NCBI GenBank assembly: GCA_036172245.1
Contig: JAYWIR010000010.1
Span: forward strand, 3,596,001-3,660,000
Direction: 5' to 3'
DNA length: 64,000 nucleotides
From: Raillietiella orientalis
Taxonomy: Eukaryota
Shown piece after piece: positions 8,181-60,819 of this stretch. A program made the translations under genes and the position numbers. The notes beneath the pieces are model-generated. The model did not search any database and was not told where the DNA came from. It saw only the letters and a program-made list of their open reading frames with translations. The number at the start of each line of letters is the position of its first letter. The first letter of the stretch is position 1.

Positions 8181-8785
8181 CTAGAGGATCTAAGAGCAGG
8201 TGGATGTTTGAAGATCGGAAAGCTTGATCAGAGAATTCACTTTCGGTAGACGCATGGGTCGCAGATTCATCGCTGGTGTTCTGATGCTACTCCTCCATGG
8301 AAAAACTTCCGAAACAGGAGAAAACCCACGTGCCACGTCGGACAGCTTCGTGTCATCACTTCCTGGCTGCTGAAGACACCTGTGGCTCTCCGACGGCCGC
8401 TTCACGCACGCCACTCGATTCGACCTGCCCAAGAACTTGCAGGAGGTTCTCGATACGGGAGGAGTCCTTGACGCGCATTCCAAACCTCTGCGCCCGGAAT
8501 CTCTTTCTCTACCTTCCTCACCATAATCCGGCCGTCCTCATCGAGAAAAGAAAAGTAGGAGCCGGCGGCCGCCGATCGGCCGATGCCGGTAGGCGACTTG
8601 AAACTCCATGAGAACGCAGGTGCTCCGCAACCGGGGCCGAGTGAACACACTCGACGTTGGGCGGGCGTGTGAAAAGGGTGGAGTAGGCAGGAGACCGAGT
8701 ACGGGAAACTTTGCGTCCTCTTCTCGGCTCCGATGAGAGCGCTTGCTGAAGAGTGGAATCCCTGGTAGCTTGGGATCTCACATTA

Positions 8786-23819: not shown

Positions 23820-25183
23820 GCAAAAGATCTCAATCAGGAACTCATCCAAACGCTTCCTCTCAAGGGAAAGGAACAGAACTTGGATTCGAGAGCGACCCGC
23901 GGGATGCCTGAAGGGTCGCTTCTCCAAGAACAAGAATATGGAGTCCGTTTGTTTCCCGCAATGTCAAGGCCGCGAAATCTCTCTTGCGTGCAGGGAGTGA
24001 GAGAAAGCTCGTAAGTGTTCTTCCTGAGGGAATCCAAACTCTCTTTTCTCGCAACACGCCGGTGGGTGTGGGTTCAGTGGAGTTGGGTTCCTTAATGGAG
24101 CGAAAGAGCAATGAAGAAGGCTCTCCCTGGATTAAATGCTGATCATGAGCTTCCTGGATGTTCGATAAGGACTAGGAGTGAAACAGCATCAGACCCCATG
24201 TAGAGCCATTCACCAATATCCGAATGCATTCTTCTTCCACAGGCACCTCCGATTCCCGCCGGAAGGAAATGAGCGCTAGAATTACTTGCAACCCAACCAC
24301 TCCTTAAGACCCGGGGTACCTTGCAAGAGAACATGACCGGTCGCAAAGAATGTCAGTCTGGTGGGGGTCCCTCAGTTTCCCTCAACAGACTACAGTCGCT
24401 ACCGGAGGTTCCTCCAGGTTCCAAAACAGAATCCTTTCAAAGCGCGCGGGGCTGGACAAACTCTGCTCTTTCCTCCTGAAGGTGTCTTGCAAAGGAAGAT
24501 CTCGCAGTGTATCTGTGCCTCAAAGTTTGCAGGCCGGGCACCGTTGGCAATGCAGACGATGATGGCCATGGTCATCCATCATGCCACTCTTCGCACTACT
24601 GATCCACTCGAGAGGAACTTTTTCTCGCACCGGTTTTCAGAAACAGCTTGGTTGCCTGATTTTCCTGCTGCTCATTGGCTTCACTTCCGTTTCCGCAAGG
24701 GATACACACGCGTTGCTCGGGGAATGAGCTCCGGAGGATGGTTTTTCCACCTTCTCCTACGTCAAATAATCTATCTCCCAGAATGGGACCTTGCGCTCCC
24801 GACAGAAGTAACTGATCCAGAGGTGAAAACCGATCTTGACCATTTGGGACTCTGTTTTGATTAGCCTGCTCCTAAAAGAATAATCACCGGAACATCTTTG
24901 AAAGAAAAATCGGTATCTAGGGACGGAGGGAGGGAAGGATAGAAGTGGTGATGGCAAGGATTGGGCCAGACGAGATCAGTCTTACACGAGCGTAGAAAAA
25001 ATTTAGGGAAAGCGAATCCGGAGCTTCAGACCTGCGTTGTTTCAGACTGCCTCGAGATGATTTTCTCAAGTTGATTCTTCGAAAACCAGAGCAGCAACAA
25101 CAACAAAAAAAAAACTTCGAAATCCTCCCTAGCCCTCTTGGAACTGCATGACCGAAGTAGGGTGGCAACTGAAGAGTAGAATA

Positions 25184-31651: not shown

Positions 31652-33595
31652 ACTGTGCACGGTGTGCTGCTGCAACACGGCGGCACCCTGAGCTCCCTCC
31701 TCTTTAGCACCTATTTCGAATCGGTACTGAGAACTTACAGGGAGACGCTCATGCCGCGCGAATATTCCGGCACGCCTGCCATGGCAGCCGATCTTCTGCT
31801 GCTGCTCCCCATGTCCACCCGGGCATCTGCATTCGAGGGTTTCTTCGAGCTGCTCAGCTGCGGGACGGGCTTAAGGGTGAACAGGGCGAAATCGCCCGTG
31901 GTTCCAGTTGGTGCGGCGTGGGCAGGACGGCCGGACTGGGTCTGCTTGGGGATCCCCACGGTCGGGTACTTGAAGTACCTGGACGTTCCGTTGTGGGACT
32001 TGTGCGTCGCAGAAGTCTGGTCCGGCCGTCTTCAAAAAGTGGAATAGCGCTCGGTCCACCAAGGAGACAGGTTTTACTCGCCGGAACGGGCTGCAGTGTG
32101 GAACGCGTTTGCGACTTTCCTCCTCTGCCATCTGCTTTGTGTTTGCTTTGCTCCTGCGGCCATCCAAAAGAGGACCGCAGACCTCCCCAGAAAAGCACTG
32201 TGGAGCTCAAGGAGGTCCAGAGTCCGGTTAAAGGACGTTTGCTCTCCACGTGGACTGGGCTTCCTTACTCTGGGGGGAGCGGATGGAGCATCAGCTCCAA
32301 TTCCGAAGAATCGTACTGGCGTCGAAGCTGTAGGCAATATCATTGTGCACAAGGACACGCATTCTTGCAAAGCAAGCAACCGGCTGCGGGGGCTGACTTC
32401 AGTCTTCGTGTCTATTGATCGAAGTTTGAACCATGTTGGTTTGCAGCTCCGAAAAATGGCTGCCTTCCTCCGGAGGAATCCTTGAATCTCCGTCCTACCT
32501 GCAAACTGGACTGCCTGGCTGCAGGAGTCAGTTTCCGCATGGGGAGAGATCCACGGCTCGAGCAAGGCGGAGTATATCTGTCTGCGGAACACCAGATGTA
32601 CTCGTCAGCCCTTGAGGGAGATCTTCGGAAACACAAGGAAGCTGCTTTGGGCGTCGTTTACCCTCCTTGCACCAGTGCTACCCTTACGATAGGAAGCAAG
32701 TGACAGCGACCTTCCGGCCAACTGGGAAGTGACGTGTACCATCAACAATAGAAAAAATGCAAAGAAAAAGTGCGTGGAGATCTCGGGAGCTGATGGATGC
32801 CGCGACCCTGATTGTGCCCCCAAGAGGACGCCTAAGCTGGGGAGAGCTACTATAAATTCCTCTGCAGGAGGTGCAGTGGCCCCAGTGTGCTGGAACAGTG
32901 CAACCCCCATTTCAAGTGGCAAGAGTCGGCGTTCCTGCTGTTGCAATGGGGCCTCCCGTGCAGTGCCCGCCGACACCATTGGACCCGGGGGAGTGCGAGC
33001 TCGAGCTGCAACAGGTGCGGAGAAAAAGAGTCACTCACGCACCTGCTCATGGGTTATGTTGCACTCCATCCCTTGTATGAACGCTTTACCGCGTCCCTGA
33101 GGATCCCCGAGGGCAACTCCAGGGACGTTTTAAAGCTCCTCTTCCTGCTCAACTCCCTCACGTCAGCCGCCTCCCTAGCAGCATTTGGCTGCCCACGCGG
33201 CGGGATCGTGGCTGCATGGAACAACGCCAGAGTCCAGCACGGAAGGCACGCCATCTATTTTGCTGTCCTCTTCATGACGATAGCGTCAAGATGACCCCAT
33301 CTGGGGGCTTTGAAATAGGAACTTGCCGGCATCCTGCGAAGGATGCAGAGGACTCCCTCCAGCACCCGGTGATCCCTTCCCGAACCCTCCCAATTTTTTG
33401 TTTATATATTTTTTTGTTTTATTTTTCTTTTTTTTTGTTTCCCCTTCCCCTCTGCTGCCGAACCTCGCCGGCCTGCGCGCCGGTTCTCGGCAGGTTCTTT
33501 TCAGTATATTTATGACGTGGCAGGACCAAGAGTCCTGCCACTGACCTGTATGTTTATTTTTTTTTTATAAATAAACGTTTCGGCTCAACCGGATG
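31652..33595 (+). mobile_element. 5'-truncated, frameshifted L1/Tx1-clade LINE copy
   Basis: 'LSSLLFSTYFESVLRTYRETL', 'VNRAKS', 'YLDVPL', Zn finger 'CNRCGEKESLTHLL', 3' UTR hairpins and terminal motif at 33570-33595. Confidence 0.9.
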
Positions 33596-35191
33596 CCAAT
33601 CGACTACCCTTCTGCAAGACCAGGTAGGTCTTCACGATCGAAAGTTTTTCACTGTATTTTCTTAAGAATTTTGCCTTCCTCTTTCTGCTTCTCTTTTTAT
33701 GTCCAACTTCCAAACTCATTCGAAGACGTTTTCGTATGTTCCTTGAAGAACATCCTCCACGTCTTACTCCCTCATAATCAGGCACACAGTCCGTGTTGTT
33801 CGTGTCTTCTAAAACATAATTTAAAACTTTATTCACTTATCTGCTGCTCACCATCTCATTCCTGCCAAGCACTGAATGAAGATAAACGACTAAACGATGG
33901 TCGGTCAACCGAATATTGACACCTCTGACATGGTTTCACGAAATGGAACTCAACGTGGTGGATTCTTGCTGGTCTGAGAATTATGACCACCATGCAGGTA
34001 ACAAGGAAGCTACTATTATTTTAATTTGGGATCTCCGTTCCCTTTCTGTATTAGCTGATTTGCTTTCTCCTTGACGTGAGGATCGCTCCTCTTTGTGCCG
34101 TCTACCTTTCGAATTTCGCTTTCTCTTTTTAAGAACAGGTTTTTGCACACTTGAGGACTTGTGTGCAAAATGTGCCTTGGGTGATTGTGAACGTCAGTTC
34201 TATAAGCAGGTAGATTTTTTCATGCGTTCTTTCCTTTCGGTGGAATTCAAGCAATGAAGTGCACCTTCCTCTTCTGGGATAGTGAATTTCTAGAAATTGG
34301 AACAATCTTTCAGTTTTTGCTCAGCCCCCTGATTGCTTGGTTTTCCAATTTTTTCAAGAGGAAGGAAAGGAAGCAGATGGTAGAAACGAGTGCGACCTTG
34401 GCTGTGGCAAAGGAAACTGAACTCTGTCAACTCTGGTAGCATCTACGGTCTTGCTTCCATTACGCAAAAGGTCGCAAAGAAAGCAGAACCTTCACGCAAA
34501 GACGTAACCGTTCCAACATTTCGATGTCTTTACGGATCAAAAACAACGAACAGCAATTTTTCACCTACGCGCTCCCCAGAAGAAATGCAACCTTTCTGTA
34601 GTCATTGGGATCCCTGGATTATTTTTGGATTTCAGTATGGTCGTTGTTCTAAAGTCGAAGAGGACTCAGAGAAGATCCATAGCCTTCTTGGAGAGTCATT
34701 GCATGAGCACTACAGAAGACGGAAAGCTGCTCATCAGTTTCGACTGAGATTCAAGGGTGCAGAGCCCTTTCAGAAGAACGCTGCTTTCAGGATTTTTCCA
34801 AGTGGGAAACATCAGAGAAGCGAGAAACAGTTTTCTCTTCGATTCCATCTCCTCCCTCTTGTAGAAATGTTTCTTCCCGGTCAAATCCATATGGCACCAC
34901 TACCCACCTCAAGGACAACATCTGGCTTCTTTCAAATTTTGCATCTTTTTTGAACGACAAACGCGTTTTCAAAAGCGCCACATGGACCGTTTCCAAATGT
35001 TGGTGATCAAGGATGCGATTTTCCTCGTATGCTTTCTGGATACTGTGAGCTCTTGGAAACAGACCATGACACTCTATCTTGTTTAGAAAAACTCTTGAAG
35101 AACCACACTGAGATAATAATAAACACTTTTCTGTACACTGCCACGATCGATAATAAAGCTTTTCATGATTTGCTTGTTTCTTCCCAACTCG

Positions 35192-36707: not shown

Positions 36708-38867
36708 CTGGAGCCCTTACGGTCGCAGTCGATTTGCATAAAGCTCTCGACTGCGTCGACCAGGAGCTCCTTCTGGAGCTTCTGGAACGCATGGGGTTTC
36801 CGGCCGTCTTCCTGGCCTACCTGCGCTCCTGCTGGCGCTTCGCGTACATGAACATTAATTTCAGCGACCGGCACGTGTACGGCGTGCCGGTTCGTCGTGG
36901 AATTCGGTAGGGACACAGCCTCAACCCTCTGCTCTTCAGCATCTACTTTGAGTTGGTGCTGAGAACATACAGGGAGACTTTGGCAACCCTGCCGAGCCTG
37001 TGTCCCAGCACGCCTGCCGTGTCGGCCTACGCCGACGACCTTCTGCTCCTGCTACCCAGATCCACCCCGGCATCGGCGCTCGAGGATTTCTTCGAGCTGC
37101 TGCGCCGCGGGACAGGCCTGGAGGTGAACAAGACGAAGTCGTCCTTGATATTTACGGACTCGTCGCGGGCAGGACGGTCGAACTGGATTCGCTTGGGGAT
37201 CCCCACGGGCGAGCACTTCAAGTACCTTGGCGTTCCGTTGGGAGACTTCTGCGCAGCAGAAGCCAGGTCCGACCGTCTCCAAAAGGCATCGCTGGCGATC
37301 GGTCCGTTCCACGAAGGCAAGTTTTACTTGCAGGAACGGGCCGCGGTGTGGAACGCTTTCGCAGCCCCCTTCCTTCGCCCCTTACATTTTGTGTGTCCCT
37401 CCCCTCCCAAATCAGACACGGACAAGGGGCTTCATCAGGCCCTTTGGGGCAACCGGAGGTCCCGCGTCCGACTTAAAGACTTGTGTGCTCCTCGCAGGGA
37501 CGGTGGACTTGGTCTCTTGACGTGTGAGCGTATGGAGCGTCAGCTCCAATTTAGGAAACTCGCCCTGGTGGCGAAACACTGGATTGCGCCGCGGTGTGCG
37601 CCTACACGACTTCTCGCCTACAGCGCAACCGGCTGCTACGGATTGACCTCCATCCTAGTGGCTAACGACCGTAGCCTGAACCATTGTGGGTTTCAGCTAC
37701 GGAACATGGTTGCCTTGGTGAGGGGAAACCCGTGGATCTCCTGCGGCCCCGCAAACTGGACTACCTGGCTCCAGGAGTCCGTTTCCACTTGGGCAAAGAT
37801 CAACAGCTCCAGCGATGTGGACTTCTCCTGCCTCCGTCGAGGCAGGTACGCTGACCAGCCCCTGCAAGAGATCGTTTCCAACCCACGTAAACTTCTGTGG
37901 ACTTCATTCACCTCCCTTGCCTCCGTGCTGCCCTCCCTCAGAGAAGCTAGGGACAGCCAAGAGGAGGCAATGTGGGAAGTGTCCTCCTTCATTGGAGGCA
38001 GGAAAAAGCTAATGAAGGCGTGGACGTCCAGGGAACTAGCGGACGCTACACCCCCGAGTGTCCCGCCGAATGGACTTGTGCGCTGAGGCGAGCTGCTGGA
38101 TATACCTCCGGAGGAGGTGAAGAGGCGCCCGGCCTCTTGGGACAACGGCATCCTCTCTTTGGATTGGCAGGAGACGGCGCTGCTTGTGCTCCATTGGGAA
38201 CTTTTAAGCAGAGCACGTCTGTCTCACTGGACATTAGGGAAAATGGATGCCAATTGTACAGAGTGCGGGGAAAGGAAGACCTTCCCCCACTTAATAATCG
38301 AGTGTGTTGCCCTCCGCTCATGTGGGATCGACTCTTGTCGATCCTGAACATTCCGGTGGGCGACCCTAAAAACATTTTTCTTCGCCTCCTGATGCGGGAC
38401 GCCCTGCCAGCCGCCGCGTGTGTTGCAGTTCTCTGCTGCATACGCGGAATTCTGGATAAGTGGACCGCGTCAAGGAGATGCCGCAGCAGTCGGGATGCCA
38501 TTCACTGAGCAGTCATCTCTATGGAGAAGGCTTCTCGTTGGCGCCGGCTGAGAAAAATTCTGTCTGCACTTGTCCGCATCCAAAACCGGATGCAGAGGCC
38601 TCATCACGGCGGACCGTGATACCTTCCCTTACATCCCCTCCGCATTTTCCCCCCTTGTGTTTTTGTTTTTCGTTTTTGTTTTTTTCTGGTTTTCCCGCTC
38701 CCTTCGCCAGTGAAGAGGACCTTACCGTCCTCAGGGTTGATACGGACAAGTGCCCAAGACAGTCAGAACGATGTGATCTGACTGAAAAATAACTCAAAAA
38801 AACAAGACTTTATTATGAAATTTCTTTGTAAAATTTCAATAATAAGAGTCTCGGCTTACCCGGGTGA
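36708..38867 (+). mobile_element. 5'-truncated L1/Tx1-clade LINE copy (RT to 3' end)
   Basis: 'VDLHKALDCV', 'AYADDL', 'YLGVPL', 'LCAPRRDGGLG', Zn finger 'CTECGERKTFPHLIIEC'; internal stops; terminal motif 38841-38867. Confidence 0.92.
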
Positions 38868-38869
38868 AA

Positions 38870-39453
38870 AACTTGCTGGGAGTCCGGTTGTTCCAAGCCC
38901 TGACTGGCCAACCCGGACTGCCAGCTTTGATGCTCGACCCCGGCTCGATACTCCCTCGGTCTTCGGATGTTGGGTTTACTAGAAAAGCGACGAGCGTGGA
39001 GCTACGATCTCTCGTTCCTCACGCCCTCTCCGAATCCTGCGGGAAGACGTTGCATCGGGTACTGTTTGCAGAAGTCATGGACTGAGCGTTTCAACCGGTT
39101 CCAGTCCTCGAGATTCTGCACGCTGAAGTCTCGCTAGAACTCGCAGAGATGCTCCGCAGCTCTCGGGAGGCTCAGACAGTTCCCTGGGAGATGCCACGCG
39201 TAATTCGGGGGACTCCTGTCGTGCGGACGAACTGTCAGCTCCATCTGGGAGTGGTCCGACAGCGCCTACCACACCCTGCGTCGCCTTCTCACCCGTGCGC
39301 ACAGGTGGTTGTCGAGGATGACGTGGTCGATGTATGTCCTCCACCCCGGCCTCTCCAGCCAACGAGTTGAGCGAGTGTACGGACGCGCACGCCTCGTTGG
39401 TCAGGTTGTGCTGGCCGTTCGGCGCCCCTGATAGCAGGCGAAGATTGAAATTT
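38870..39453 (-). mobile_element. Internal LINE ORF2 fragment (APE end + linker)
   Basis: 'NFNLRLLS..NEACASVHS..TYIDHVILD' and 'LPAGFGEGVRN..WQSG' align to the ORF2 at 55329-57605. Confidence 0.85.
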
Positions 39454-39454
39454 C

Positions 39455-41283
39455 TCACCTGGTCACGCTGGGGCGTTTATTTTATGGAAAAATAAACCAG
39501 TTGGGAACCAAGTTCCCAATCGACGACAACAGAGAACAAAGGGGAGGGTCCACCGGCAAGCAGACCGGGATAAGGGAAGTTCGGAATGGGAGAAGGGATC
39601 GAGGGACAACAAAAAAAGAAAAATAAACGCGGTGGGATGGAACGGGGATCTTTGAGTTCGCTACGAGAGGCACGGGGATAAAAACAAAACACCGGGGAAG
39701 CTGCAGAGCAATCGGAGATAGGGAATGAAAGGGGATGGGTGAAGATGAAAATAATGAAAATAGAGAGTGGGAGGGAGCAAGGGTCACCGGGCTCTGCCGT
39801 TCCTAACTGTCCATCAACCGGCGGTGGATGCCGGCGATCTCGTTCGCCTCTTCGTCCCGGTGAGGCCACCTCACAGCCACCCTTATGTATGCCATCCTGG
39901 TGACCCCCCTTCGCTGCGCGGTCGTCTCAAACACATGGTGGGTTGTGACAATGGCACGGATGCAACTCATGGTTGCAATCACTGCGCCCGTCTGGCGGTC
40001 GGTGGCGAAGCACTCGCAACCCTGTTTGCGTGTCACCACCGCCGGTTCCGATCTTGCGGTTTCCCTCTCCGGTGTGTCGCTGCTCTGATGAGAGCGAACA
40101 CGTGGATTCGCTGACGCCCTGCAAATACTCCGACCTGGCGGCAGGAGAAAGTGAGGCCGTGGGACCAGCTCACCCAGGTCCCGTCGGAAGTTACCCGCTG
40201 CCGAGAGTTTCAGAAGATCAAAGGAAGAACACTGGAGGCGGTGGGTAGTGAACTGACTATGTTGGCCTACCCAGCAGCCAGCCCCTTAGCCGCAGCGGTG
40301 TCCTCCGCTATCAAGGTACATGACACTTGCCTACCGGTGAAGTGAGAGGTTTCCAGCGAGATCTCGGCCCGCAGGAAGCCTATCGGTGGCTGGACATCGC
40401 GTGAGCTGGCTGACGCGGCAACAGCAAGAACCGCCTCCAAAGGACTGGAACGTTGGGACGAACTCTTCTCCATTCAGCCCGAAGAGTTGGAAATACCCCG
40501 GGAATGCCCATGGACAGCAAGCTGCTTCCCCTCAAGTGGCAATCGGCGCTGCCTATACTGCACTGGGGTCTTCCGTGCAATGCGAGCCGGACCACTGGAC
40601 GAGGGAAAGCACATCGCCGAACTGCGCCAGGTGTGGAGAGAAGACCTTCCTCCACCTCATAGTGCAGCCTGTCGCCCTCCGGGACTTGTGGGAACGTTTC
40701 TTTGCGTCCCTTCCACACCCCGTGGACGATCCCAGAGACTCCTTGAGGCCTTTCTTCGTGCGGGGCGCTATGACGCCCGCAGCCGCATTCGCAGCGCTGT
40801 GCTGCCTGCGCGGTGCCGTCGCGGAGAAGTGAGACGCCGAGGGTGATCAGAGCGACGGGGGAGCTGCCCTGCAGGCCATGCGCTTCCTGCAGATAGCTTT
40901 GAGGTGGCCCCACCTGGAAAGGGAGAAGGAGGAGCTCGCCGACATCCTTCAACGAACGCCGAGGCCTCACCCATCATGAAACGTCAACCCTTCCCTCCCC
41001 CCCCAATTATTTTTTTTTTTTTGTTGTTTTGTTAATCTTTATTGTTTGTTATAGTTTGTTTTCTTTTTGTTCTAATTTTGTTTCATTCCTCTTCCCCTTC
41101 GTGTATGTGATGGACCTCGCCGTCTCTTTCTCTTTTTTCCTAATGTAATAACTGGAATCGATGAGCCTTTTGCCTCCAGCGATTCCTGCAAAAGGAATAA
41201 ACGCCCCGGCGCACCCGGGTGTGAAATCACTGCGCCCGTCGACAGACCTCCTGGAGCAAAGAACCGTCGGAGCACATCTCGGA
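39455..41283 (-). mobile_element. Short 3' LINE copy interrupted by a nested insertion
   Basis: Reading frame 'RDVLRRFFAPGGLSTGAVI' (41225-41283) resumes as 'ATMSCIRAIV..IHRRLMDS*' below 39977; terminal motif at 39455-39481. Confidence 0.88.
39993..41224 (+). mobile_element. Nested 5'-truncated LINE copy with 16-bp TSD
   Basis: TSD aatcactgcgcccgtc at 39977-39992 and 41225-41240; Zn finger 'CARCGEKTFLHL'; terminal motif 41196-41224. Confidence 0.9.
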
Positions 41284-41295
41284 GATCGAAATTTT

Positions 41296-42198
41296 TCACG
41301 CGGCCATGCCGGGGCGTTTATTAAAAATAAACCAGTTGGGAACTTTTCTTCCCAGCCGACGACTACAAGAAGCAAACAAGAGAGTCCATCGGCACGCAGG
41401 CTGGGAAAACGGAAATCCGGAACGGGGGAAGTGATCGGGGGACAACAGAAAAAACAACATCGGTGAGAGGGGTAGGGATCTTTGGTGTCGCTCCGTACTC
41501 TCCGGGGAAAAAAAAAATAAGAGTACCAAGAAAGTAATGGAGCAATGGAGACGGGGGATTAGGAAAAAAATAAAATAAAATAAAGGGAGGGAGGGGACAA
41601 GGTTCACTGGGTCCGCCGCTCCAAGTCGTCAATCAACCGGCGGTGGATGCCAGTGATCTCCTCCTTGGCTTCCTCTTCCAGGTGAGGCCACCTTGAAGCT
41701 GTCTTGATGTGAGTGGCTGCCATCCTGGTGACCTCCCTTCGATGCGCGATGATTTCCTGCACCTGTCGGGCCGAAACGATGGCGCGGATGCAACGCATGG
41801 TTGCAATAACAGCGCCCGTCGAGAGGCCTCTCGGCGCGAAGAACCGCTGCAGCACGTCTCGAGCGGTGTCCTCCTGGTGCAGGAATGCTGTTTCCAGCCT
41901 CCGCGACAGTTCTTGGAGGATGCTGCAGTCCAAAAGTCCTGGCACAGTTAGGGGAAACAACCCCTCTGGAAACTCGGTGCCACCGCTCGTTGCACCGGAA
42001 TCCTCAGTGAACAAAAAGCAGCACGTCCTGTTTCCAACTCAGCGGAAACACTGATGTGTTTACAGCAGTTTGGCGGGACCACTAGTTCTTCGGGAGCAAC
42101 ACTCAGCTGTTCGTACCATCGAACAAGTCCCGCAGCAGTTGTCCGTGTAGTGGCAGCGTCTGCCAACTCGAGCGCCTTCCAGCCAACTAAGAGTTTTG
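41296..42198 (-). mobile_element. 5'-truncated LINE copy (ORF2 C-terminus + 3' UTR)
   Basis: 'ELADAAT..EELVVPP..LHQEDTARDVLQRFFAP'; terminal motif 41296-41322. Confidence 0.88.
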
Positions 42199-42202
42199 TT
42201 TG

Positions 42203-43450
42203 TCACCCGGATATGCCGGGGCATTTATTATAAAAATTTTTTACGCACACGAAAAAAATTCCTTAATAAAGTCATTAGGAATGTTTCATTCGTGGTAGAA
42301 CACTTGGTTCTACCACGCTCGAGAGACTTGGCATAAACCGGTACATAGACCGGTGAGGCCCTCTCCAAAGGCGAAGGGGAAGAAAAGAACAAAACACAAA
42401 TAAACAAAAAGAATTGAAAAGGGGAGGAAAATGTTTTTAGGGGAGGTTGGAGGTGGGAATAGATCACTGTATACCTGGATTGGTCCTCTGCATCCTGTTA
42501 CGGACGCTAACAAGTGCTGGACGGATATTCCAGAGTCGGGGCCATGGGGCGGAGTGCTTCATGAAGATTTCCGCCCAGTGGATGGCTCCCCTGCTGTTTT
42601 GGCCTCATCTGTTCGCGGCCCACCTTGCCGCTATTCCGCGTACACAGCAGAGAACTGCTAGAGACTCTACGGAGGGTAGGGCATTACGCATGAAGAGGAG
42701 CCGGAAAATGTCTTTCGGGTCGCCTTCTGGAATATTCACGATCGACAAGAGTCGATTTTAAAGGTCACGGAGGGCGACACAGTCTATTAAGAGATGCGGG
42801 AAGGTTTTCCTTCCGCCGCACTCTGCACAACGGGCATCCACACTTACAAGTGTTCAGTGAGAGAGGCGTACTCTGCATAGGATTCCCCGACGCAAGAATA
42901 GCAACGCCGTTTCTTGCCACTTTATTGGGAGGGTGCAACTGTCCTCACACGGTGGGGGCTACTTCCCCTCCTGCGGAAGCATTCCGAGCAGCTCGCCCCA
43001 GGGCAAAACTCGTTTAGGAGGGAAACTCTGGGTCTCAGCGTTCGCTAGCTTCCGAGTTGTCTTGTACCTTCAAGAGTTCTTTCCTGCCCCCGATGAGGCA
43101 GGACACTTCCCACAATGCTCGTTCCTTGCTATCCCTAGCGTTCCTGAGGGAGGGCAGCACTGGGGCAAGGGGGATAAAAGAAGTCCACAGCAGCTTGCTT
43201 GGGTTGTTGAGCGTAGGTTCCTTGTCGGAGGCAGACGTATTCCGCCTCGCTCGAGCTGTTGATTTTTCCCCATGCGGAAACAGACTCCTGAAACCAGGCA
43301 ATGCAGTTCGCGGGGAGGTAGGAGATCCACGTGTTCTCCCTCACCAGGGCAGCCATCTGTCGCAGCTGATGACCATAATGGTTCAGGCGGCTTTCGCATG
43401 CCACGAGTATCGAAGACAATCCTTTGCAGCCGGTCGCTCTGCTGGCAAGA
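42203..43450 (-). mobile_element. 5'-truncated LINE copy (related to the 36708-38867 subfamily)
   Basis: 'QLRQMAALVRENTWIS..QESVSAWGKINSS', 'NPSKLLWTSF..WEVSCLIGGRK'; terminal motif 42203-42229. Confidence 0.88.
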
Positions 43451-43862
43451 GCTTAACCGGAGCTTTTATTTTTTAAATTCTACATTATTTGTTATATTTA
43501 AATTTAGTCTTTTGGGTATTGCTTCTTCCACAACACATGGTTCTGGCAATGTTTTTTCACTTGTCCTTACCGACCCGCTGGCGGGTGTGGTACTCTCCAC
43601 AGGCGAAAGGGACGGCAAAACCAAAAAAAAAAGAAAACAAAAGAAAAAAAAGAAAAAACGCCGGGGGGACAAAGTTTTATGGAGTGGGGAGGAATGGGAT
43701 GGGATCACTGCTCGCCGGGAGGAGTCCTCTGCATCTGGTTTCGGATGCGGGCAAGTGCCGGTTGAATTGCCCTTAACCGGTTCCATCGGCATGCCTTCTC
43801 CATGGAGAGGATTGCCCAATGAATGGCGTTCCGGTTTCTATGTCCTCTCCTCGATGCATTGC
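43451..43862 (-). mobile_element. Short LINE 3' end fragment
   Basis: 'TCPHPKPDAEDSSRRAVIPS' nearly matches 38565-38625; AATAAA plus only the first arm of the terminal stem. Confidence 0.8.
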
Positions 43863-44995
43863 ACTTACGTCGACACGACAGGAGTGCCCGAGCACGAGCT
43901 AGGCAAGGTTACCAGAGTATCCCTGTATGCTCTCAACACCAGCTCAAAGTAGATGCTGAAGAGCAAGGGACTCAGACTGTCACCCTGTCTGATACCGTGA
44001 TGAACAGGAACACCGTACACGTGCCGGATGCTGAAACAAACGCGAAGTGCCAGCAGGAGCCCAGGTAGTCCAGGAAGACGGCCGGAAATCCCATGCGCTC
44101 CAGTAGCTCCAGGAGGAGTGCCTGGTCGACGCAGTCGAAAGGACATGGGGAGCAGAAGAAGCAGATCATCAGCGTAGGCGACCATGGCAGGCGTTCCCGG
44201 GCAGGAGCTTGGCAAGTGAGACAGCGTCAGCCTGTACGCTCTCAGCACCAACTCAAAGAAGATGCTGAAGAGCAACGGGCTTAAGCTATCCCCTTGCCGA
44301 ATGCCCCTACGCACGAGAATACCGTACATGTGGCAGCTGCTGAAAGTAATGCAGGTTAGCGCGTGGCGCCAGCAAGCGCGCAAGTAAAGCAGGAGTTGCG
44401 CCGGGAATCCAAGGCGTTCCAAAAGCTCCAAGAGGAGCTCCTGGTTTACGCAGTCGAACGCCTTATGGAGATCGACCGCGACCGCCAAGGCACCTGGCGT
44501 TCCCTCCTGCCGTCGGCGCGTGTTCTTGCCTGCGGCTGCGGCTTTCGCCGCAGCCCGGCTCTGCTGCGCCACGACCTCCTGTAGCTGCATCCAAGTGCGC
44601 GCGAAAAGGATGTTCGCCTCCATGGATCGTCCGGCAACCGCGTAGGGTTGTTCCGGGCTCACCAGGGATTCCGCGAGACTTCCTAACCGCGCGACCCACA
44701 GCTTAGAAAATAACTTGACGTTCGAATTCACCAGAGTGATCGGACGCCAGTTGTTGAGATGGCAATTGAAATCTCCGGCTACCAGGTGCGCTTTCCGAAC
44801 GTCTCCTTTAATCAGCCAGTCGCGTCGCAAGTTTCTGAAGAATGTCTTTCGTTCCCGGGCTCTGCTTGAGCCTCTAGGAGTGTACACATTCGTGACTACG
44901 GGATCGATCGAGTCGGACCACCTAGGTGTCAGTTGGCCGACCCGACCTTCCTTGTCGAAGCGTACGCTTTCTCGTCCGTCGCGACGACCGGTTGA
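43863..44995 (-). mobile_element. Rearranged LINE ORF2: APE fused in frame to RT, followed by a second RT segment from another subfamily
   Basis: 'NVYTP..AGDFN|CHLNNWRPITLV..DLHKAFD..QGDSLSPLLF..YADDL', then a repeat of 'FDCVDQ..QGDSLSPLLF' at 43863-44140. Confidence 0.88.
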
Positions 44996-45056
44996 ATAAG
45001 GAAGACCATCCTGCAGGACCGGAGGGATCCGCAATGTCACGGCAGCAGGCCACCCC

Positions 45057-45916
45057 AGTTGACAGTTGCCTACCGGCAAGGTGGGAAATCGCCTGCACTA
45101 TCGCAGGAGCAACCCGACCCATGGGCGACTGGAGGACTAGCGAGCTGGCAGACGCCGCCACGCCTCGCAACATCCCGAAGGGACTCCTTCGGTGGAGTGA
45201 ACTCTTGAGTGTGCCCCCCGAAGAACTTGTGGTCCCTCCCTAGTGCATGAACACTTCTGTGTTCCTCCTTTCTTGGAAGCAGGACATCATCATGCTGGTG
45301 CATTGGGGTTTCCATTGCAGCCAGCGCGCTCACCTAGTTTCCGTGGGAGTTGTCTCCTCGAACTGTAAAAGGTGCGGAGAAGCAGAAACGCTCCAGCACC
45401 TGCTCTTCGACAACGGTGTTCTCCAAGGACGTGACGGAGGCTGGCTTCAGCTCTCCTGCACCAGGGGGACACTGCAAGGACATTAATGCTCCGCTTCTTC
45501 ACGCTAGGCGGCCTGTCGTTAGGTGCTTTCGTCGCTACGATCTGTTGCATCCGCGCCATCGTCACGGCCCGCCGCCAGTTGGAGTCACAGGAGATTTTTC
45601 GGGAGGTCGCCGGTTTAGCCGACAACATGATGTCGGCTACCAGGTGGCCTCATCTTTCAGAAAACATCAGAAAGGAGATCTCCGGCATCCAACGCCGATT
45701 CTGAAAGGAACGGCCGAACCCACAGACCCAGTCGTCAACTCCCTCCTATCTCTTTTTGTATTTTTTGCATATATGTATTTGTGGTCCCCTCCCTCCCGTT
45801 CTGGACTTTCGGTGTGACCGACCTGCATTTCGGGGAGTCCTCTCCTCGAACTTCCCTTTGTCTGGGAACTTTTGTCTGGAAAATTACTGGCTCATTTCCG
45901 GAGCAATTTCCGGATG
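45057..45916 (+). mobile_element. LINE 3' portion (related to the 53811-57913 subfamily)
   Basis: 'DSCLPARWEIACTIAGATRP', Zn finger 'CKRCGEAETLQHLL', 'EISGIQRRF*', 3' UTR with a degenerate terminus. Confidence 0.88.
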
Positions 45917-48834: not shown

Positions 48835-49523
48835 GCATTCCCTCTTCTTTGGAAACAGGACGTACTTTTGCTCGTGCATTGGGATCTCCATTGCAACCAG
48901 CGCGCGCACCTAGTTTCCGGGGAAGTTGCTTCCCCCAACTGTGGACGGTGCGGAGCAGCAGAAACGTTCCCGCACCTTCTTTTCGACTGCGGTGTCCTCC
49001 AAGGACTGTGGCGGAGGCTGGCTTCAGCTCTCCTGCACCAGGGGGACACTGCAAGGACATTAATGAGCCGCTTCTTCACTCCAGGCGGCCTGTCGTTAGC
49101 CGCGGTTGTCGCAACGGTCTGTTGCACCCGCGCCATTGACAAGGCCCACCGACAGCTTGGAGGGACGGGTGGAGTCGCAGGCGATTCGTCGATAGGCCAC
49201 CGGAATAGCCGACGACAACATGACGTCGGCTGCCAGGTGGCCTCTTCTTCCAGAAGACGTCAGGAAGGAGATCTCCGGCGCCGGTTATAAAAAGATGGAA
49301 CGGCCGATACCAAAGACCCCTGTCCCCAACCCCTCCATATCTATTTTTATATTATATATATATATATATATTGATTGATTGATGGTCCTTTCCCTTCCGT
49401 TCCGGACTTTCGTTTTTTCCGACCTGCGTCTCGGGGAGCCCTCCCTTCGATCTTTTGTATCCCTTGCCTGGGAACTTTGTTCCCAGATACTTTTTAAATA
49501 AATGTCCCGGCGCACCCGGGTGA
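48835..49523 (+). mobile_element. 5'-truncated LINE copy (Zn finger + 3' UTR)
   Basis: 'CGRCGAAETFPHLLFDC..LHQGDTARTLMSRFF'; terminal motif 49497-49523. Confidence 0.9.
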
Positions 49524-50032
49524 AAAGCATCTCCCACTCGAATCCCATGGATGTTTTCGCCGTTCTGGTTCCTTGGAATTTCTACACATGGGATCCACGG
49601 AACGGCTCCAGGTTTCAGGATGACTATACCAAGAATGCCTCACTCACTGGCATTCCCGATTCGATGGGATCTGGTGGGATCTGACGGCTCTGGAAACTTT
49701 CTTGATCAGCTGACAGCAATGATGAGCACACAAGAGCAATAACAGTTAAGCAGCCGATAAGGATCAGTACATAGTGCTCGCACGTTTGAGGAAAAAATAC
49801 TCAGTAATAAATGCGTTAATTTCATTTGCCGAGTTCCCAAGGTGAGTCTTTCTCGTTAGGGGACTTCCAGAAAGGAAATCTTGGATTCGTTGTCATGGCG
49901 GCGACTGGTGTCGATCAAAATTCCGAATACCGAAATCTCGAAAGATTACCTTTTTTTATAATCATTAATTATTCTTATTCATAATAAGCATACGTATTTA
50001 TTTTTTTTAAAAATGTGCTTATTATGAATACT

Positions 50033-50143
<111 letters not shown>

Positions 50144-53700: not shown

Positions 53701-54036
53701 GAAAGGAAGCGAAGCGACCGAGTCCAGTCAGGATGTTGGGAAATCGGGAAGCGTTGTTTGGGGTGGATTCCAAGATGCGATTTCCATGGAACGCAACGAC
53801 ATCCAGCTGATTATCACCCGGGTGCGCCGGGGCGTTTATTAAAAACTATCCGGGAACAGAGTTCCTGGACAAAGGGAAAAACAAGAGACGAAGGGGGTGG
53901 GATCCCCGACACGCAGGTCGGTATGCCGAAAGTCCGGAAAGGGAGGGAGGGGACCACAAATAGACTACTATAAAAAATAAAAAGAAAAATATGGAGGGCA
54001 GGGGACAGGGGTCTTTGGTTCGGCCGTTCCTTCCTT

Positions 54037-57000
54037 TCAGAACCGGCGATGGATGCCGGCGATCTCTCTCCTCACGCTCTCTGGTAGGTGGGCCCACTCG
54101 GCAGCCGACGACATGCTTGCGCTGGCTAATCCGGTGGGCTGACGAAGGATGGCCAGCTTCTCCAACTCTCGGTGGGCCTTGTCGATGGCGCGGGTGCAAC
54201 ACACGGTTGCAACGACAGCACCCAAAGACAGGCTGCCTGGCGTGAAGAAAAGGCGCATCAAGTCTCTGGCGGTGTCCCCCTGGTGCAGGAGCGCTGAGGC
54301 CAGCCTCGGCCAAAGTCCTAGGAGGGCGCCGCAGTCCAGGAGCAGGTGCGGGAGCGTTTCCACTTCCCCGCACCGCTTACAGTTTGGGGAGACAACTCCC
54401 CCGGAAACAAGGTTCGTGCGCTGGTTGGAGTGAAAACCCCAATGCACCAGCATGATCACGTCCTGCTTCCACGAAAGGGGGAACACAGAAGTGTTCAAAC
54501 AGGAGGGAGGGACCACAAGTTCTTCGGAGGCCACACTTAAGTGTTCACTCCACCGAAGGAGTCCCTTCGGGATGGTGCGAGGCGTGGCGGCGTCGGCCAG
54601 CTCGCAAGTCCTCCAGCCGCCTATGGGTCGGGTTGCTCCTGCGATGGTGCACCTCCCACCTCGCCGGTAGGCAGCTGTCATCTCTTGCCCTGAAGGCTGA
54701 CAGTGCGTCGGCGAGGGGGGTGACGGCCAGGCGGGTCCACTTCTCCTGGCTGTTGCACACCTCATCCACCGTGCAGTACGGGGAGAGGTGAGCGCAACGG
54801 AGTTCCAGGAGGGAAACATCCTGGTGCTTTGCCCAGCCATGCAACGGTTCCTGCCGCTAGGCTTCAAAGTTCGTTGGGCGGCAGGAGATCCATTTCTGGG
54901 CTTCCAGGAGCCGGTAGAGCGGTTTCAACGGGAAACCGAAGCTTCTCGTGGCGCGCTCCGTATGCGGCCGCAGCGACAGAAGTCCATCGCTGCCTGTGCA
55001 GCGCCGCAGAAGCAGGCGCGCGGAAGCGCACCACGGAGTGGACCAAAGGTTGGCGCACAGGGCCAACATCCGAAGCTGCACCTCCAGCTCGATTCTCTCC
55101 AGCGTCAGGATGCCTAAGCCAGCATCCTGACGCGGAGCCGCCGAGTCTTTGAGGCGGATCCTGGACCTCGCAGGTCCCCACAGAGCGTTCCTCAACAGGC
55201 CGTGCTCCTGGAGCTTGGCCGAGTAGGGGGCAGGCAAACAAAAAGCAGGGGGTGCAAGAGGGGGGCAACGAAGGTGTTCTATATCGCGGCCCGCTCCGGC
55301 AGGACGAATCTGCCATGGTGGAACGGGCTCAGAGCACTCGTAGCCTTCCGAAGGCCAACCACACTTCCACTGGGCTGATGTTCCCCAGCGGAACGCCCAG
55401 ATATTGGATGGACGAAGCAGTCGGGATCCCCAGGCGGATCCAGTCGGACTGCCCCTCCCACGCCGCACCAATTGGAACGACCACGCTCTTGCTCCGGTTT
55501 ACGCTCATGCCCGCTCCCCGGCGAATCAGTTCGAAGAAATCCTCGAGACTGGACGCCGGGGTGGTCATGGGTAAAAGGAGAAGCAGGTCGTCAGCATAGG
55601 CCGCCACGGACGGCGTTCCTGGACAAGAGCTCGGCAGGTTGGACAGCGTCAGCCTGTACGCCCTCAGCACCAACTCAAAGAAGATGCTGAAGAGCAACGG
55701 GCTTAAGCTGTCGCCCTGACTGATGCCCCGCCGCACCGGCACGCCGTACACGTGGCAGCCGCTGAAAGAGATGGAAATGAGCGCGTGGCGCCAGCAAACG
55801 CGCAAATAGGCCACGAGGTGCACCGGGAGACCGAGGCGTTCCAGGAGCTCCAGGAGGAGATCCTGATTCACGCAGTCGAACGCCTTACGGAGATCGACCG
55901 CGACCGCCAAGGCACCCGGCGCTTCCTCAGACCGAATGCAGCGACGCCTAGCCTCGGCAGCCGCAGATGCGGTTACCTGGCTGTCGTGCGCCACGCAACG
56001 TTGCAGCTCGAGACACGTGCGCGCGAAGAACAGGTTTGCCTCCATGGACCGCCTGGGAACAGCGTAAGACTGCTCCGGACTTACCACGTATCCAGCGATC
56101 CTACCTAGGCGCGCGACCCAGAGCCTGGAGAACAACTTGACGTCCGCATTCACCAAGGTGATGGGACGCCAGTTGCTTAAATGGCGCATGTCTCCGCCTT
56201 TCGGCAAGAGACGCACCCTCGCTGAGCGAAACGAGGCCGGGACATTGCCTGTCTCTCGCATCAGCGCAGAAAGCCTCAGCACCAGGGGGATGAGTTCCTC
56301 CGCGAAGCACTGGAAGAACTCCGCAGGCAGACCATCCTCACCTGGCGCCTTGCGCTTCTTGAGGCCCGCTATGGCGGAAGACACTTCTTCCGCCGTGAAG
56401 GGTAAGTCAAGAGTGGCGCGTTCCTCCTCGTCGACCGCCGGGGAATCCGTCGGCAGAAGCAGCTCCGAGAGACTGCGTTCCGTCGGCTCCCTAGCATACA
56501 ACGAGGAGTAGTAGCGCTTTAGGAGACGGCGAACGTCGTCCGCGCCCGAGCACTCCAGGCCTTGGTCGTCGAGCAGACAAGCCGCTCCTGACTGCCAGAC
56601 CTGGCGCTCGGCCTTGGCCTTGTACTCCGCAAGGTACCGGACGTCCGGGCATCGGGAGAATTGGCGGGCCTGCAGAAACTCTCTGCTGTTGGCCACACCT
56701 TCTCGGAAGCCACGGGGAAGCAGGTGCAAGGGGAACCGGCAGCAGAACTCGCGGACCGATCTTTTCAGATCGTCCCAGTCCACGAGCTCCCGAACGGTCA
56801 AGCTCCGGAGATGCTGGCGGAGGTGCTCCGCAGCCACCGGATTTCTTAGCCAGTCGGTCGGCAACCTCCAGACGTGAGTCGGAGGACCCTTACCAGGCGG
56901 GAGTAGCTCCAACTCCAGCCTGTGGTGGTCGGAAAGCTCGGACGGCACGGGACCTCTTCGACCCACCCGACAATGCAGGTGATCGTCGAGGAGCACATGG

Positions 57001-57605
57001 TCCGGCAAAGCACGCATCCCGGGATCGTCGGCCAGCAAATTCGAAGCGTGCACGGACGCGCACACCTCGTTCACCAGCCGCTTCTCCCGGAGACGGTGGG
57101 ACTCCTCCGATAGCGCGTGGACGTTAAAGTCCCCGGCTAAGAGGTGAGCCACGTCGGGGCCGGAGTTGCTCAGCCAGCGGTCGCGCAGTCTCTCGAAAAA
57201 CTCCAGTTTCTCGGTGTGACGCGCAGAGCCGCTCGGCGCGTACACGTTCGTGATGACAAGGTCGATCGATTCGGACCACTTGAGAACAAGTTGGCCCACA
57301 CGACCTTCCTCGTCGAAAAAAAAGCTCCGCACCGCCCCCGCCACCCTGCCCCAGACAAGGAATGCCACTCCGCAGGTATTCTGGGAGCCTGACCTCCAAT
57401 GGAGCGTCCCGCCTGCGCGAACTTCCAGATCGGCCGCTTGCTGCTCGGAGAGTGCGTGAATCTCCTGCAGCAGGGCCAGATCGAAGTAGCGCAAGACGTT
57501 GGCAACCAATCGCCTCTTCTCGTTGTCCTGCAGCCCGTTGACGTTCCAACAGGCCACTCGGACGCGACGAGAAGATGCGAGACCGCGCATTGCTGCTATG
57601 GACAT
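54037..57605 (-). pseudogene. LINE ORF2: APE endonuclease + RT + CCHC Zn finger; open for 758 aa, then several frameshifts/stops
   Basis: WNVNGL, LQEIH, NVYAP, GDFN, SDH; KAPGEDG, WRPITL, DLRKAFD, QGDSLSPLLF, YADD, YLGVPL; AAPRQDAGLG; CKRCGEVETLPHLLLDC. Confidence 0.95.
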
Positions 57606-57638
57606 GGAGGTGCGTTCCTCGCCCCGTCCGGCGAGGCA

Positions 57639-57913
57639 TCAGCCGGGAGCATCAGCGGATGGGGGAGCGCAAGCGCTTCCTGTCTCCGCCGCGCCTCTCG
57701 CGGCTGGCTCGGTGGAGTCGAGGACCATTGCCTCGGGCTCCGAGGAGCATCGGGAACCGTTCCCGGCATCAGGCTCTTGCCTGGCAAGTTTCGGCTTGCG
57801 CGCAGCCCTGGCCTTGACCGGGGCTTGGCGAGCCTTTGCGCTGCCTTCGGACTCCACCTCGGAGTCCGAATTCCGCGCGCGCGGCGGGCGTTTCGCCTGC
57901 CTCTTCTTCTGCT
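57639..57913 (-). pseudogene. Probable truncated C-terminal tail of LINE ORF1 (basic, low complexity)
   Basis: Open K/R/A-rich frame ending 33 nt before the ORF2 ATG, inside the TSD-defined element. Confidence 0.5.
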
Positions 57914-60099
57914 GACATCCAGCTGAAGGGTGCACGTGAGGCCAGAAACACTGTAAGGAGGGTGCTACGGGACGCGGAGGCGGACGAAGACGGACGCGTT
58001 TCTCACCTTCTCAGCCGATCGAAACGGAAATTGGCAATCTGGAACGGATCGCCCCATCGACAGATAGAGCTGGAGAGCGTTGGCCTTCTCGAGTGTGTGA
58101 AAAGAGAGCACACCATAAGATGTTTTTCCGTACGATCGCCCTCCGGACCTGCAGCGCCTGCAAGAGTAGCATCCTGGTTACGGGGACAAAAAAGCGAATT
58201 GGGAAGTCGGTCGCTCGCAATGCGGGGTCTGATCGGCGATGTGCACGCCCTGCAACAAACGGGAAAGTTTTCGTGAAGCATTTCGATGCCTGCGGCTGCA
58301 GAGAAGCTTCACCGTGCTCACATCGCAGATCCTGACAGGCTGAGCTACGGACGGGTTGCACGAAAGTTGCCTTCCGCGTCCGGTGACCTTCAGGAACAAA
58401 GTACACTCGGCGCGACTTGGGCAGGTCGTTTTCGGGTGCGCATCGTCTGGAGAGAATAGGGACGTCGAAAGGAAAGGAGGGATTTGCGTACGCAAACCCA
58501 TGCCGGGCGCCATTTCGATCGTTGGGATTTCCAGACGCAGGCCATTTCTGCCCAGCCGCAGGTGCGACAGCCCTCTTTCGTACGGCTGCAGGCTCAGATG
58601 GGAAGCAATGTGTCTGACAGAGGGTGGACGTAAGGAGGTGACGGCGCGAAGGAGCGAACTGTCATGCAGGCATCGGATTCTGCTGGCAGAAGGGAAAATG
58701 GAAAGGGAGGAGGCGCGGTAGGGATCGACAGATGGCACAGTCGAATCTTGGTCACTTGTGCGGCTGTCTGCGAGGCTTCACCGGAAGCAGGCGAGGATGC
58801 GGTTTGCGTACGAATGAGTGTCGGGACTGGCCGATGTCTTCCCAGAGTCATGTGTCGAGATGAATCTTTCGCCGTGTTGCATCTCTTCGAGAGATGCTGC
58901 TTTGCTCTTGGCTCGTGGAGAAGGGAAATCGCTAATGTTTCGGCTAGGGTGGCTGCACCTCTTGAAGGTTGTTGGGTGTTTCGATAAGAGATCCCGGCCC
59001 CTTGTTCCGGCCCGTGAAACTAGGTGCGAGGAATTTTGTCGAAACAACGAGAAAACAGGAACGAACAGGCTGCATACTGATGTCGCGGCGTCTACCCAAG
59101 TTTGCGATGGAGGAAAGTTGCGATGTGTCACCTTCCTGACCTCGGGGCGGGACAATCGGTCTAGGAGCAAGTTTTCGTTATGGCGAAACATGCGAAGTGT
59201 TATTATTGGCTTTGGCCGTGTTGAAGCTTTGCATGGAAATTCAACTTCCCGGAGCAGCGATCGTTGCCACCGAAGGATCAGCAATGCAAATTTGAAAGGA
59301 GTCTCGGCGCGATACGAAAGAACTGAACCTGAGGGATGATGACGCGTGAGACATGTGGTCCGGGGAAACGGACGGAACGAACTCTTCTTCTCCCTCTCCT
59401 TTTCTCTCTCTTTTTTGTTCTTTTTTTCCCGGGATGAAGAGGAGAGCACACTTTGCGGGAAGATGGGGGAGGGGAGGTTTGCGGCGCGGCAAAATCGGGC
59501 CCAAGTCACGTGATGTACGGGAGGAAGCTCCGCCGCTTGCGGAAATGCTTTTTATCGCGTTTCTTTGGGCGGGCGTAAGGCGAAGGGAACGAGGAATTCT
59601 GCACGCGAACAGAGCAGGGCGAAGCGAGGAAAAGGAACACCCCAGTGGTCCTGCCTAGGAGGATTTCGGAAGGGGGGGGAGGATGCAAGACGTAAGGCGG
59701 GAAACAGCATGGAAAAACGGCATTAGCATCTATGATGACTTGCTGCGGTAATTTTCATGCCGCTGTACTACGTTTTTTTTTGCTCTCCAGTTTCACTCTT
59801 CCCAGCTCCTTGAAGAGGAGCTGGGAAGGATGCTTTCCAAAGAAGGATGTGATCAACTCGAAAGAGAACAGCAAGAATCAGGAAAACGCAGGTCTGCTTC
59901 GGAGACGTCTTTATCTGCGTCTCCGTATCAAAATAAAAGATTGTGGTGCAGCAGTGAAGATAGTATTGGTCTTGAAAGTTGTGGGACACGATTTTGATGC
60001 ATGCATGGTAGATTTTAGTCTACCAGACTTTGATGCTTTTGTTTCTTCGGAAAAGCCATTTCAGGAAGTGCGCGCATCTCTTTGGGGGGTGATCTAATG

Positions 60100-60776: not shown

Positions 60777-60819
<43 letters not shown>

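Follow-up and report, generated by a model that had tools for sequence, protein, structure and literature searches.

A LINE family in a 64-kb window of Raillietiella orientalis that ends at a fixed distance after a terminal hairpin and carries no poly(A)

The window analysed here, 64,000 nucleotides of contig JAYWIR010000010.1 of Raillietiella orientalis (positions 3,596,001 to 3,660,000 of the forward strand), contains a family of long interspersed nuclear elements (LINEs) whose copies end in a short conserved module with a hairpin and no poly(A). All coordinates below refer to this window. We introduce the family through one copy on the minus strand, whose 3' untranslated region (UTR) holds three stem-loops in the order SL0, SL1 and the terminal SL2:

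53811-57913, minus strand: LINE copy, 5'-truncated inside the presumed ORF1, with ORF2 broken into three frames
55329-57638, minus strand: ORF2 frame 1, endonuclease and reverse transcriptase (RT), 769 amino acids
54857-55498, minus strand: ORF2 frame 2
54037-54924, minus strand: ORF2 frame 3, Cys/His C-terminal region, 295 amino acids
53906-53921, minus strand: SL0, CCGAC-CTGCGT-GTCGG, with a 6-nt loop and a covarying stem
53850-53868, minus strand: SL1, CCAGGAAC-TCT-GTTCCCGG, pairing kept while the stem sequence varies between subfamilies
53811-53840, minus strand: terminal module, AATAAA-CGC-CCCGG-CGCAC-CCGGG-TG-ATAA, best match to covariance model R1 (48.1 bits)
53798-53810: 13-bp target-site duplication, 3' copy (partner 57914-57926)
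57914-57926: 13-bp target-site duplication, 5' copy

The 769-residue frame matches the apurinic/apyrimidinic endonuclease (APE)-type family PF03372 over residues 31-238 (expectation value, E, 3.8e-13) and the RT family PF00078 over residues 479-750 (E 7.7e-21). In the 295-residue frame a C-x2-C-x7-H-x4-C string is visible, and the zf-RVT family PF13966 is matched at E 0.006 and 17.7 bits, under its 27.5-bit cut-off. Among proteins of solved structure, which include no CR1, RTE, I or Jockey member and leave those clades compatible, the best relative of ORF2 is human L1 ORF2p (E 2.4e-42, 148 bits), with R2 proteins at E 4.8e-17 or weaker. A search of 5.8 billion proteins gave 58 matches and a single close relative, a 619-residue metagenome fragment (P0001) with 64% identity; the other matches are at most 28% identical, save three short local ones at 30-36%. 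P0001 is encoded on a metagenome contig of 2870 nt, a length at which the sequence may break off shortly before the 3' end of the element.

In a FastTree phylogeny of 59 rows, the window protein and this fragment form one long branch within a 42-row group (support 96). All 23 rows with zf-RVT, a liverwort protein among them, fall on the wider side of 43 rows, which the tree separates from a group of 16 rows with Exo_endo_phos_2 or RNase H domains. The position supports an ORF2 that is L1-superfamily-like, with labels that are Pfam architectures only and that do not separate L1 from Tx1. An earlier account drawn from the letters of this DNA (hereafter the preliminary description) had called the element L1/Tx1-type; the combination of APE and RT, the kinship with human L1 ORF2p and the zf-RVT side of the tree agree with this placement, down to but not including the choice between the two clades. 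A deep-branching member of the L1 superfamily, with an APE endonuclease, an RT and a Cys/His C-terminus, appears to be the best explanation of the family. Upstream of ORF2, at 57639-57913 on the minus strand, lies the tail of a further frame, about 90 residues rich in K, R and A that stop 30 nt short of the start codon of ORF2; Pfam gives no match for it, and it is presumably the C-terminus of ORF1.

Searching the window for AATAAR-N18-TG returned 16 matches against 3.81 expected, a number that none of 100 shuffles reached. Nine of the 16 are the motif copies listed in the preliminary description, real and with stems and loops exactly as quoted there; the sequences were correct, and only the minus-strand starts were off by one, becoming 8787, 39456, 41297, 42204 and 53815. 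Directly upstream of all nine, tblastn finds an ORF2 C-terminus (31-78% amino-acid identity to the 53815 copy), and the motifs are therefore 3' termini belonging to diverged subfamilies within a single LINE family. Besides the module of the 53815 copy, these and the related features are:

49497-49526, plus strand: terminal module of the 49497 copy, matched by both the pattern and R1
41196-41225, plus strand: terminal module of the 41196 copy (element 39993-41224), 26 nt identical to the 53815 copy
39977-39992: 16-bp target-site duplication of the 41196 copy, 5' copy (partner 41225-41240)
41293-41322, minus strand: terminal module of the 41297 copy, with one stem mismatch
42200-42229, minus strand: terminal module of the 42204 copy
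39452-39481, minus strand: terminal module of the 39456 copy, with two stem cells broken by CG-to-CA changes
38841-38870, plus strand: terminal module of the 38841 copy, an AATAAG variant
33570-33599, plus strand: terminal module of the 33570 copy, with a T-A outer pair; no other of the nine has a two-sided stem change
8783-8812, minus strand: terminal module of the 8787 copy, with a 10-bp target-site duplication
15264-15293, minus strand: decayed tenth terminus, AACAAA...GGTGACAA (R1 15.6 bits, E 0.91; upstream UTR aligns)
45057-45877, plus strand: eleventh 3' region, without a terminal module (last ~45 nt lost)

The covariance model R1 was built from the nine copies themselves, which by construction score 39.6-48.1 bits. 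Its next match in the window is the locus at 15264-15293, whose tail reads GGTGACAA; since the UTR upstream of this match aligns with those of the other copies, we count it as a tenth, decayed terminus. The eleventh 3' region and the 53815 copy share about 81% identity. Many of these features lie in a dense LINE nest at 38800-45900, made of at least seven fragments in both orientations, where the 41196 (plus) and 41297 (minus) copies stand tail to tail about 70 nt apart and the end of the 41297 copy abuts the 42204 (minus) copy.

Aligned at their ends, the nine copies and the decayed tenth share, without a single insertion or deletion (indel), the module AATAA(A/G)-N3-stem5-loop5-stem5-TG-NN-AA. 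The fixed loop length and spacing asserted in the preliminary description are thus borne out across ten termini; its motif, which closed with TG(A), was correct as far as it went, and the unit runs four bases further, to TG-NN-AA. Invariant in the nine gap-free termini are AATAA, G14, C15, C20-C21, T25-G26 and A29-A30, where G14 is the last base of the stem arm, C15 the first base of the loop and U25-G26 the dinucleotide directly after the stem. The sixth base of the hexamer is A in eight of the nine (AATAAG in the 38841 copy), and the base right after TG is A in seven. The AA that follows TG-NN is invariant in the nine intact copies, and with the decayed tenth all ten termini read TG-NN-AA. 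Base-specific invariants of this kind, C15 and U25-G26 in particular, would suit contacts with a protein.

The module forms an island of conservation. Over 36 pairs of copies the last 30 nt show a mean identity of 76.8% with no indel, while the preceding 80 nt show 55.5% against 52.6% in shuffled controls, that is, near the shuffled level; unlike the module, the upstream UTR is also rich in indels. The 41196 and 53815 copies are identical at 26 of 26 terminal nt, with ORF2 C-termini only 35-52.5% identical, and this identity ends sharply at AATAAA. A 3' end far more conserved than the upstream UTR across subfamilies is what characterizes LINEs of the stringent type. A DNA palindrome was considered as the conserved feature and rejected: the last 10 nt, CACCCGGGTG, are a perfect palindrome in only three copies (53815-53824, 41212-41221 and 49513-49522), and other subfamilies have none.

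The exact 3' end is given by target-site duplications. Both of those named in the preliminary description, of 13 bp and 16 bp, are real, and we add a third of 10 bp (8774-8783 / 9636-9645) around the 8787 copy, which coincides with the onset of LINE similarity. Between TG and the duplication stand ATAA in the 53815 copy, TGA in the 41196 copy and ATA in the 8787 copy, so that all three duplications begin 3-4 nt after TG; the motif lies at the very end of the element, which leaves no room for poly(A). Two of the three duplications open with A's that overlap the terminal AA, a microhomology with the target, and the target sites differ between copies. A 9-bp duplication considered for the 49497 copy was discarded as unreliable, since the similarity to the LINE begins only some 930 nt further in. 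Further support comes from an independent public DNA run, in which 198 contigs are 80-99% like the element and not like its flanks: in three of them the match ends at 53811, the deduced last base, and is followed by dissimilar sequence that is not poly(T). Though limited, this evidence bears out the end point independently.

None of the ten termini in the window carries a poly(A) tail. The preliminary description had allowed at most a few A's after the motif, and indeed about 5 A after TG is the most that any copy shows. The window keeps 26 runs of A or T of at least 9 bases, none of them after a LINE terminus, and A-runs have therefore not simply been lost in this genome. A tandem-repeat finder reported nothing at the termini, where the tail is a single TG-NN-AA and no short tandem repeat. 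Together, the duplications and the alignment establish that the family ends at a fixed distance after the hairpin without poly(A), as had been claimed. Elsewhere, at 14208-14248 on the plus strand, AATAAA is followed by 18 nt and a run of 16 A's; the stretch resembles the end of a poly(A)-tailed retrocopy and is unlike the hairpin-ended LINE family.

The two hairpins 5' of the terminal one, SL0 and SL1, are absent from the preliminary description, and both covary. SL0 has a stem of 5-6 bp and a 6-nt loop that starts with CT in all subfamilies, with the stem variants CCGAC/GTCGG, CTGAC/GTCAG, CCGGT/ACCGG and GAGGAC/GTCCTC; hairpins of the same type (6-nt loop starting with CU) recur with unrelated stems in the 38841 and 42204 copies. 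SL1 lies 9-63 nt upstream of AATAAA, with stems of 6-13 bp that fold at -8.2 to -19.8 kcal/mol and 5' arms that change with the subfamily (GGCAGGAC, GGTAGAAC, TGGGAAC and TAGGGT, for example), each accompanied by its complement. The counts for SL1 come from per-copy folds; the MAFFT alignment is out of structural register there and was not used.

In a three-hairpin model of the five well-aligned copies, 86.7% of 90 cells pair and 7 of 18 pairs show two-sided changes; none of 500 shuffles reaches these values, and controls with slid arms stay at or below 46.7% pairing. RNAalifold, unprompted, returned the same three hairpins with 17 pairs, 7 of which have a compensatory change. For SL0 and the terminal hairpin together, in seven copies, 90% of the cells pair and 4 of 10 pairs are two-sided, with 3 of 500 shuffles reaching the cell count. 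Stem-loops with compensatory changes are thus found in the 3' UTR for SL0 and SL1; the values of the terminal hairpin taken by itself are equalled in 108 of 500 column shuffles.

In the terminal hairpin, 42 of 45 stem cells pair over the nine copies (93.3%). Eight cells depart from the commonest pair: four are U-G, one is a two-sided change from C-G to U-A, and three, confined to the decayed copies 39456 and 41297, are broken. With the partner arm slid by one column, the pairing falls to 57.8-66.7%. A second two-sided change is found in the decayed tenth copy. A separate pairing was noticed next to the module: GTTTATT, the exact complement of AATAAAC, stands 3-11 nt upstream of it in four copies (8813-8825, 33550-33569, 39482-39497 and 41323-41332). 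The two pair in the minimum-energy folds of four of the ten copies, and the pairing is absent from the youngest-looking copies, 53815 and 49497. This pairing may form an alternative helix in which the hexamer is hidden, or it may simply reflect T-richness.

An exact end 6 nt after the hairpin, no poly(A), base-specific invariants and a covarying UTR make up the anatomy of a stringent-type LINE, and this leads to the reading that we regard as somewhat probable: the module would be a 3' end of the stringent type, recognized by the element's own ORF2 protein. With its last base exactly 6 nt beyond the 5-bp GC hairpin (...stem-UG-NN-AA), the retrotransposed unit has no poly(A), and SL0 and SL1 precede the module. 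The ORF2 protein would bind this structured 3' end, as in other LINEs of the stringent type, with the terminal hairpin acting as a structure. Target-primed reverse transcription would then start at the terminal AA, and the A's with which two of the three target-site duplications begin suggest base pairing between this AA and T's at the nick. The AAUAAA hexamer may in addition contribute to forming the RNA 3' end.

Several results weigh against this reading. Taken alone, selection on the terminal 5-bp hairpin as a structure is not significant: the covariation test on the nine copies, which have one two-sided change, gave the 108 of 500 shuffles quoted above. The claim made there that most stem changes are G-U compatible or compensatory is literally right (five of eight) and, by the same test, not significant. 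Folding energies of the 30-mers, -4.0 to -11.8 kcal/mol over the ten copies, correspond to z-scores of -1.32 to +0.11 against shuffles, and the 30-mer of the 53815 copy prefers a register shifted by one base. When the last 200 nt are folded at minimum energy, only 4 of 10 copies form the terminal hairpin. The shuffle tests are moreover inflated, since the structures were read off the same sequences and the samples are small (5-9 related copies). The family also lacks the short tandem repeats in which L2, CR1 or RTE elements end. A partner short interspersed nuclear element (SINE) that shares the 3' tail is a classic sign of stringent recognition, and a search of the 64-kb window with model R1 found no SINE or other non-autonomous partner. 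Finally, AAUAAA about 20 nt before the end looks exactly like a poly(A) signal, and the module may act in RNA processing.

This last point is the core of the main alternative, which we consider unlikely on balance. The module would be a compact signal for RNA 3'-end formation, with AAUAAA as its poly(A) signal, a hairpin that fixes the spacing, and cleavage at the G/A next to the stem. An exact terminus would then result from the cut in the RNA and not from an RT that reads the hairpin, with a very short A tail or with only the first A's copied. The invariance of AATAA in the nine intact termini and the A at its sixth position in eight of them agree with this, as do the distance of 24 nt from hexamer to end, inside the 10-30 nt of canonical poly(A) sites (textbook values), the T-rich tracts just upstream, with TGTA in two copies, and the frequent A after TG. 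Hexamer and spacing of a canonical poly(A) site are present in eight of the nine intact copies, or in all nine if AAUAAG is counted; the genomic copies, on the other hand, are tail-less. A poly(A)-primed RT of the L1 type is expected to leave tails of variable length, and the three copies with perfect target-site duplications have 3-4 nt after TG. Poly(A) signals tolerate variable spacing, while ten copies show zero indels in 30 nt, and a variable NN before an invariant AA is unlike a pure A tail. Processing and recognition by the RT do not exclude each other; the absent tails and the indel-free spacing weigh against processing as the whole story.

It is also conceivable, and in our judgement improbable, that only the primary sequence of the terminal 26-30 nt is conserved and the hairpin is incidental, either through a recent exchange of tails (by recombination or template switching) or through a binding site at the level of single strands or DNA. 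The terminal stem shows neither significant covariation nor extra stability, shuffled GC-rich 30-mers fold about equally well, and the 26 of 26 nt shared by two subfamilies up to the sharp AATAAA boundary fit a recent swap. The pairing itself speaks against an incidental hairpin: the three stem cells out of 45 that fail to pair lie in two visibly decayed copies, pairing is kept in five of the eight changed cells, the tenth copy provides a second two-sided change, and a shift of one column takes the pairing from 93.3% down to 57.8-66.7%. The module also comes after two hairpins that do covary.

The idea that the motifs arose by chance or by a misreading of the sequence deserves practically no credence and is already refuted: 7 of the 16 loose-pattern matches are indeed unrelated sequence, and the stricter pattern AATAAA-N3-YYYGGC-N4-CCGGRTG occurs 65 times in 596 billion bases of prokaryote genomes, but six copies fit that pattern within 64 kb, about 10^6 times the bacterial background (by inspection), all nine stand behind an ORF2 C-terminus, and R1 separates them from the next match (39.6-48.1 against 15.6 bits, with a model made from the same nine). 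The 65 prokaryote stretches, and 112 more in metagenome contigs, were considered as possible relatives; by tblastn (E <= 1e-3), an ORF2 relative is encoded at none of these 177 loci, most of which lie in bacterial records, and they were set aside as chance matches. Viral contigs, scanned at the protein level with the ORF2 C-terminus as query, yielded no match.

Recognition of the 3' end by the ORF2 protein, the reading we prefer, has precedents among L1-like elements, and the contrast drawn in the preliminary description, with poly(A) for L1 and stem-loops for L2, was too sharp. According to the excerpted text of PMC3472496, maize LINE1-1_ZM and Chlamydomonas L1-1_CR belong to the L1 clade and have a conserved 3' end of about 45-50 nt, with a hairpin that carries compensatory changes; of 15 green-algal L1 families, two end in (A)n and five have no 3' repeat, and a stringent L1 lineage of maize shares its tail with SINEs. 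The window family is like LINE1-1_ZM and L1-1_CR as an L1-like LINE with a conserved 3' hairpin end, as far as that text describes them. Going by the same descriptions, it differs from them, with their plant and algal hosts, in forming a separate deep branch and in having no SINE partner in the 64 kb. As L1-clade LINEs with 3' stem-loops are already known, the family adds to a known kind and is not unprecedented. Our literature search, in which Repbase itself was not covered, found no description of this terminus, nor of apicomplexan or Tx1 LINE tails.

In stringent LINEs, the ORF2 protein binds the 3' stem-loop, in the L2 elements through a region between the endonuclease and the RT, and the complementary DNA (cDNA) starts at a defined place (PMC4176376, excerpted text). 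As excerpted, the L2-clade elements UnaL2 of eel and ZfL2-1 and ZfL2-2 of zebrafish share with the window family a 3' stem-loop just before an exact end, loop bases that matter and the lack of poly(A). L2-clade stringent LINEs end in short tandem repeats; in the window family, by contrast, the tail is a single NN-AA, the module includes AAUAAA, the RT is L1-like and the recognition is putative.

Mammalian L1 shares with the window family an ORF2 with APE and RT. Both also have AATAAA near the 3' end, which mammalian L1 combines with the logic of an A/T-rich nick site; mammalian L1, of the relaxed type, requires and leaves a long poly(A), whereas the window family leaves 4-5 nt. A conserved stem-loop in the 3' UTR has been proposed for human L1 and Alu, as stated in the excerpted text of PMC5135761. 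The window family differs from R2, which is site-specific and has a restriction-like endonuclease, in its APE-type endonuclease, its varied targets and its RT, which R2 proteins match much more weakly (E 4.8e-17) than human L1 ORF2p does. R2 offers a parallel in that its protein binds a structured 3' UTR and its 3' junction is exact and lacks poly(A). The 3' end of replication-dependent histone mRNA, where the RNA stops a few nt downstream of a short GC hairpin and has no poly(A), is an analogy only: a scan of the whole window found no Rfam family at its gathering score, hence no Histone3, and the geometry here is that of a 5-bp stem and a 5-nt loop.

We put forward more tentatively the bolder possibility that the family represents a deep, uncharacterized branch of the L1 superfamily, whose ORF2 protein would read the 30-nt AAUAAA-hairpin-UG-NN-AA module together with the two upstream hairpins and start cDNA at a fixed base, like R2, without poly(A). 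If so, strict template recognition would be ancestral or recurrent in L1-like elements well beyond plants and algae, and an APE-type retrotransposon would have, in this module, a very small and portable tag for recognition of its 3' end. With many diverged subfamilies that share one exact 30-nt terminus and a three-hairpin UTR, the family provides a clean natural system for asking how the reverse transcriptases of L1-like elements choose their template and which RNA features an ORF2 of the L1 type reads. A lineage outside plants and green algae also adds to the evidence that the poly(A) dependence of mammalian L1 is a derived and relaxed condition. For annotation, the 3' ends of copies without poly(A) are best located by the motif itself.

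Two further features of the window stand apart from the LINE family. An open frame at 23406-23963 (minus strand) has a weak match to the rhodopsin family 7tm_1 (E 2.6e-6, below the Pfam cut-off); no homologue of it was found, and the look-alike clusters in the Atlas are commonest in animal phyla. A tissue coccidian as host, at first suggested by the appearance of the DNA, gained no support, and coccidian poly(A)-site data play no part in the argument above. Perfect microsatellites lie at 50036-50140, with 52.5 units of AT, and at 60779-60817, with 19.5 units of TC.

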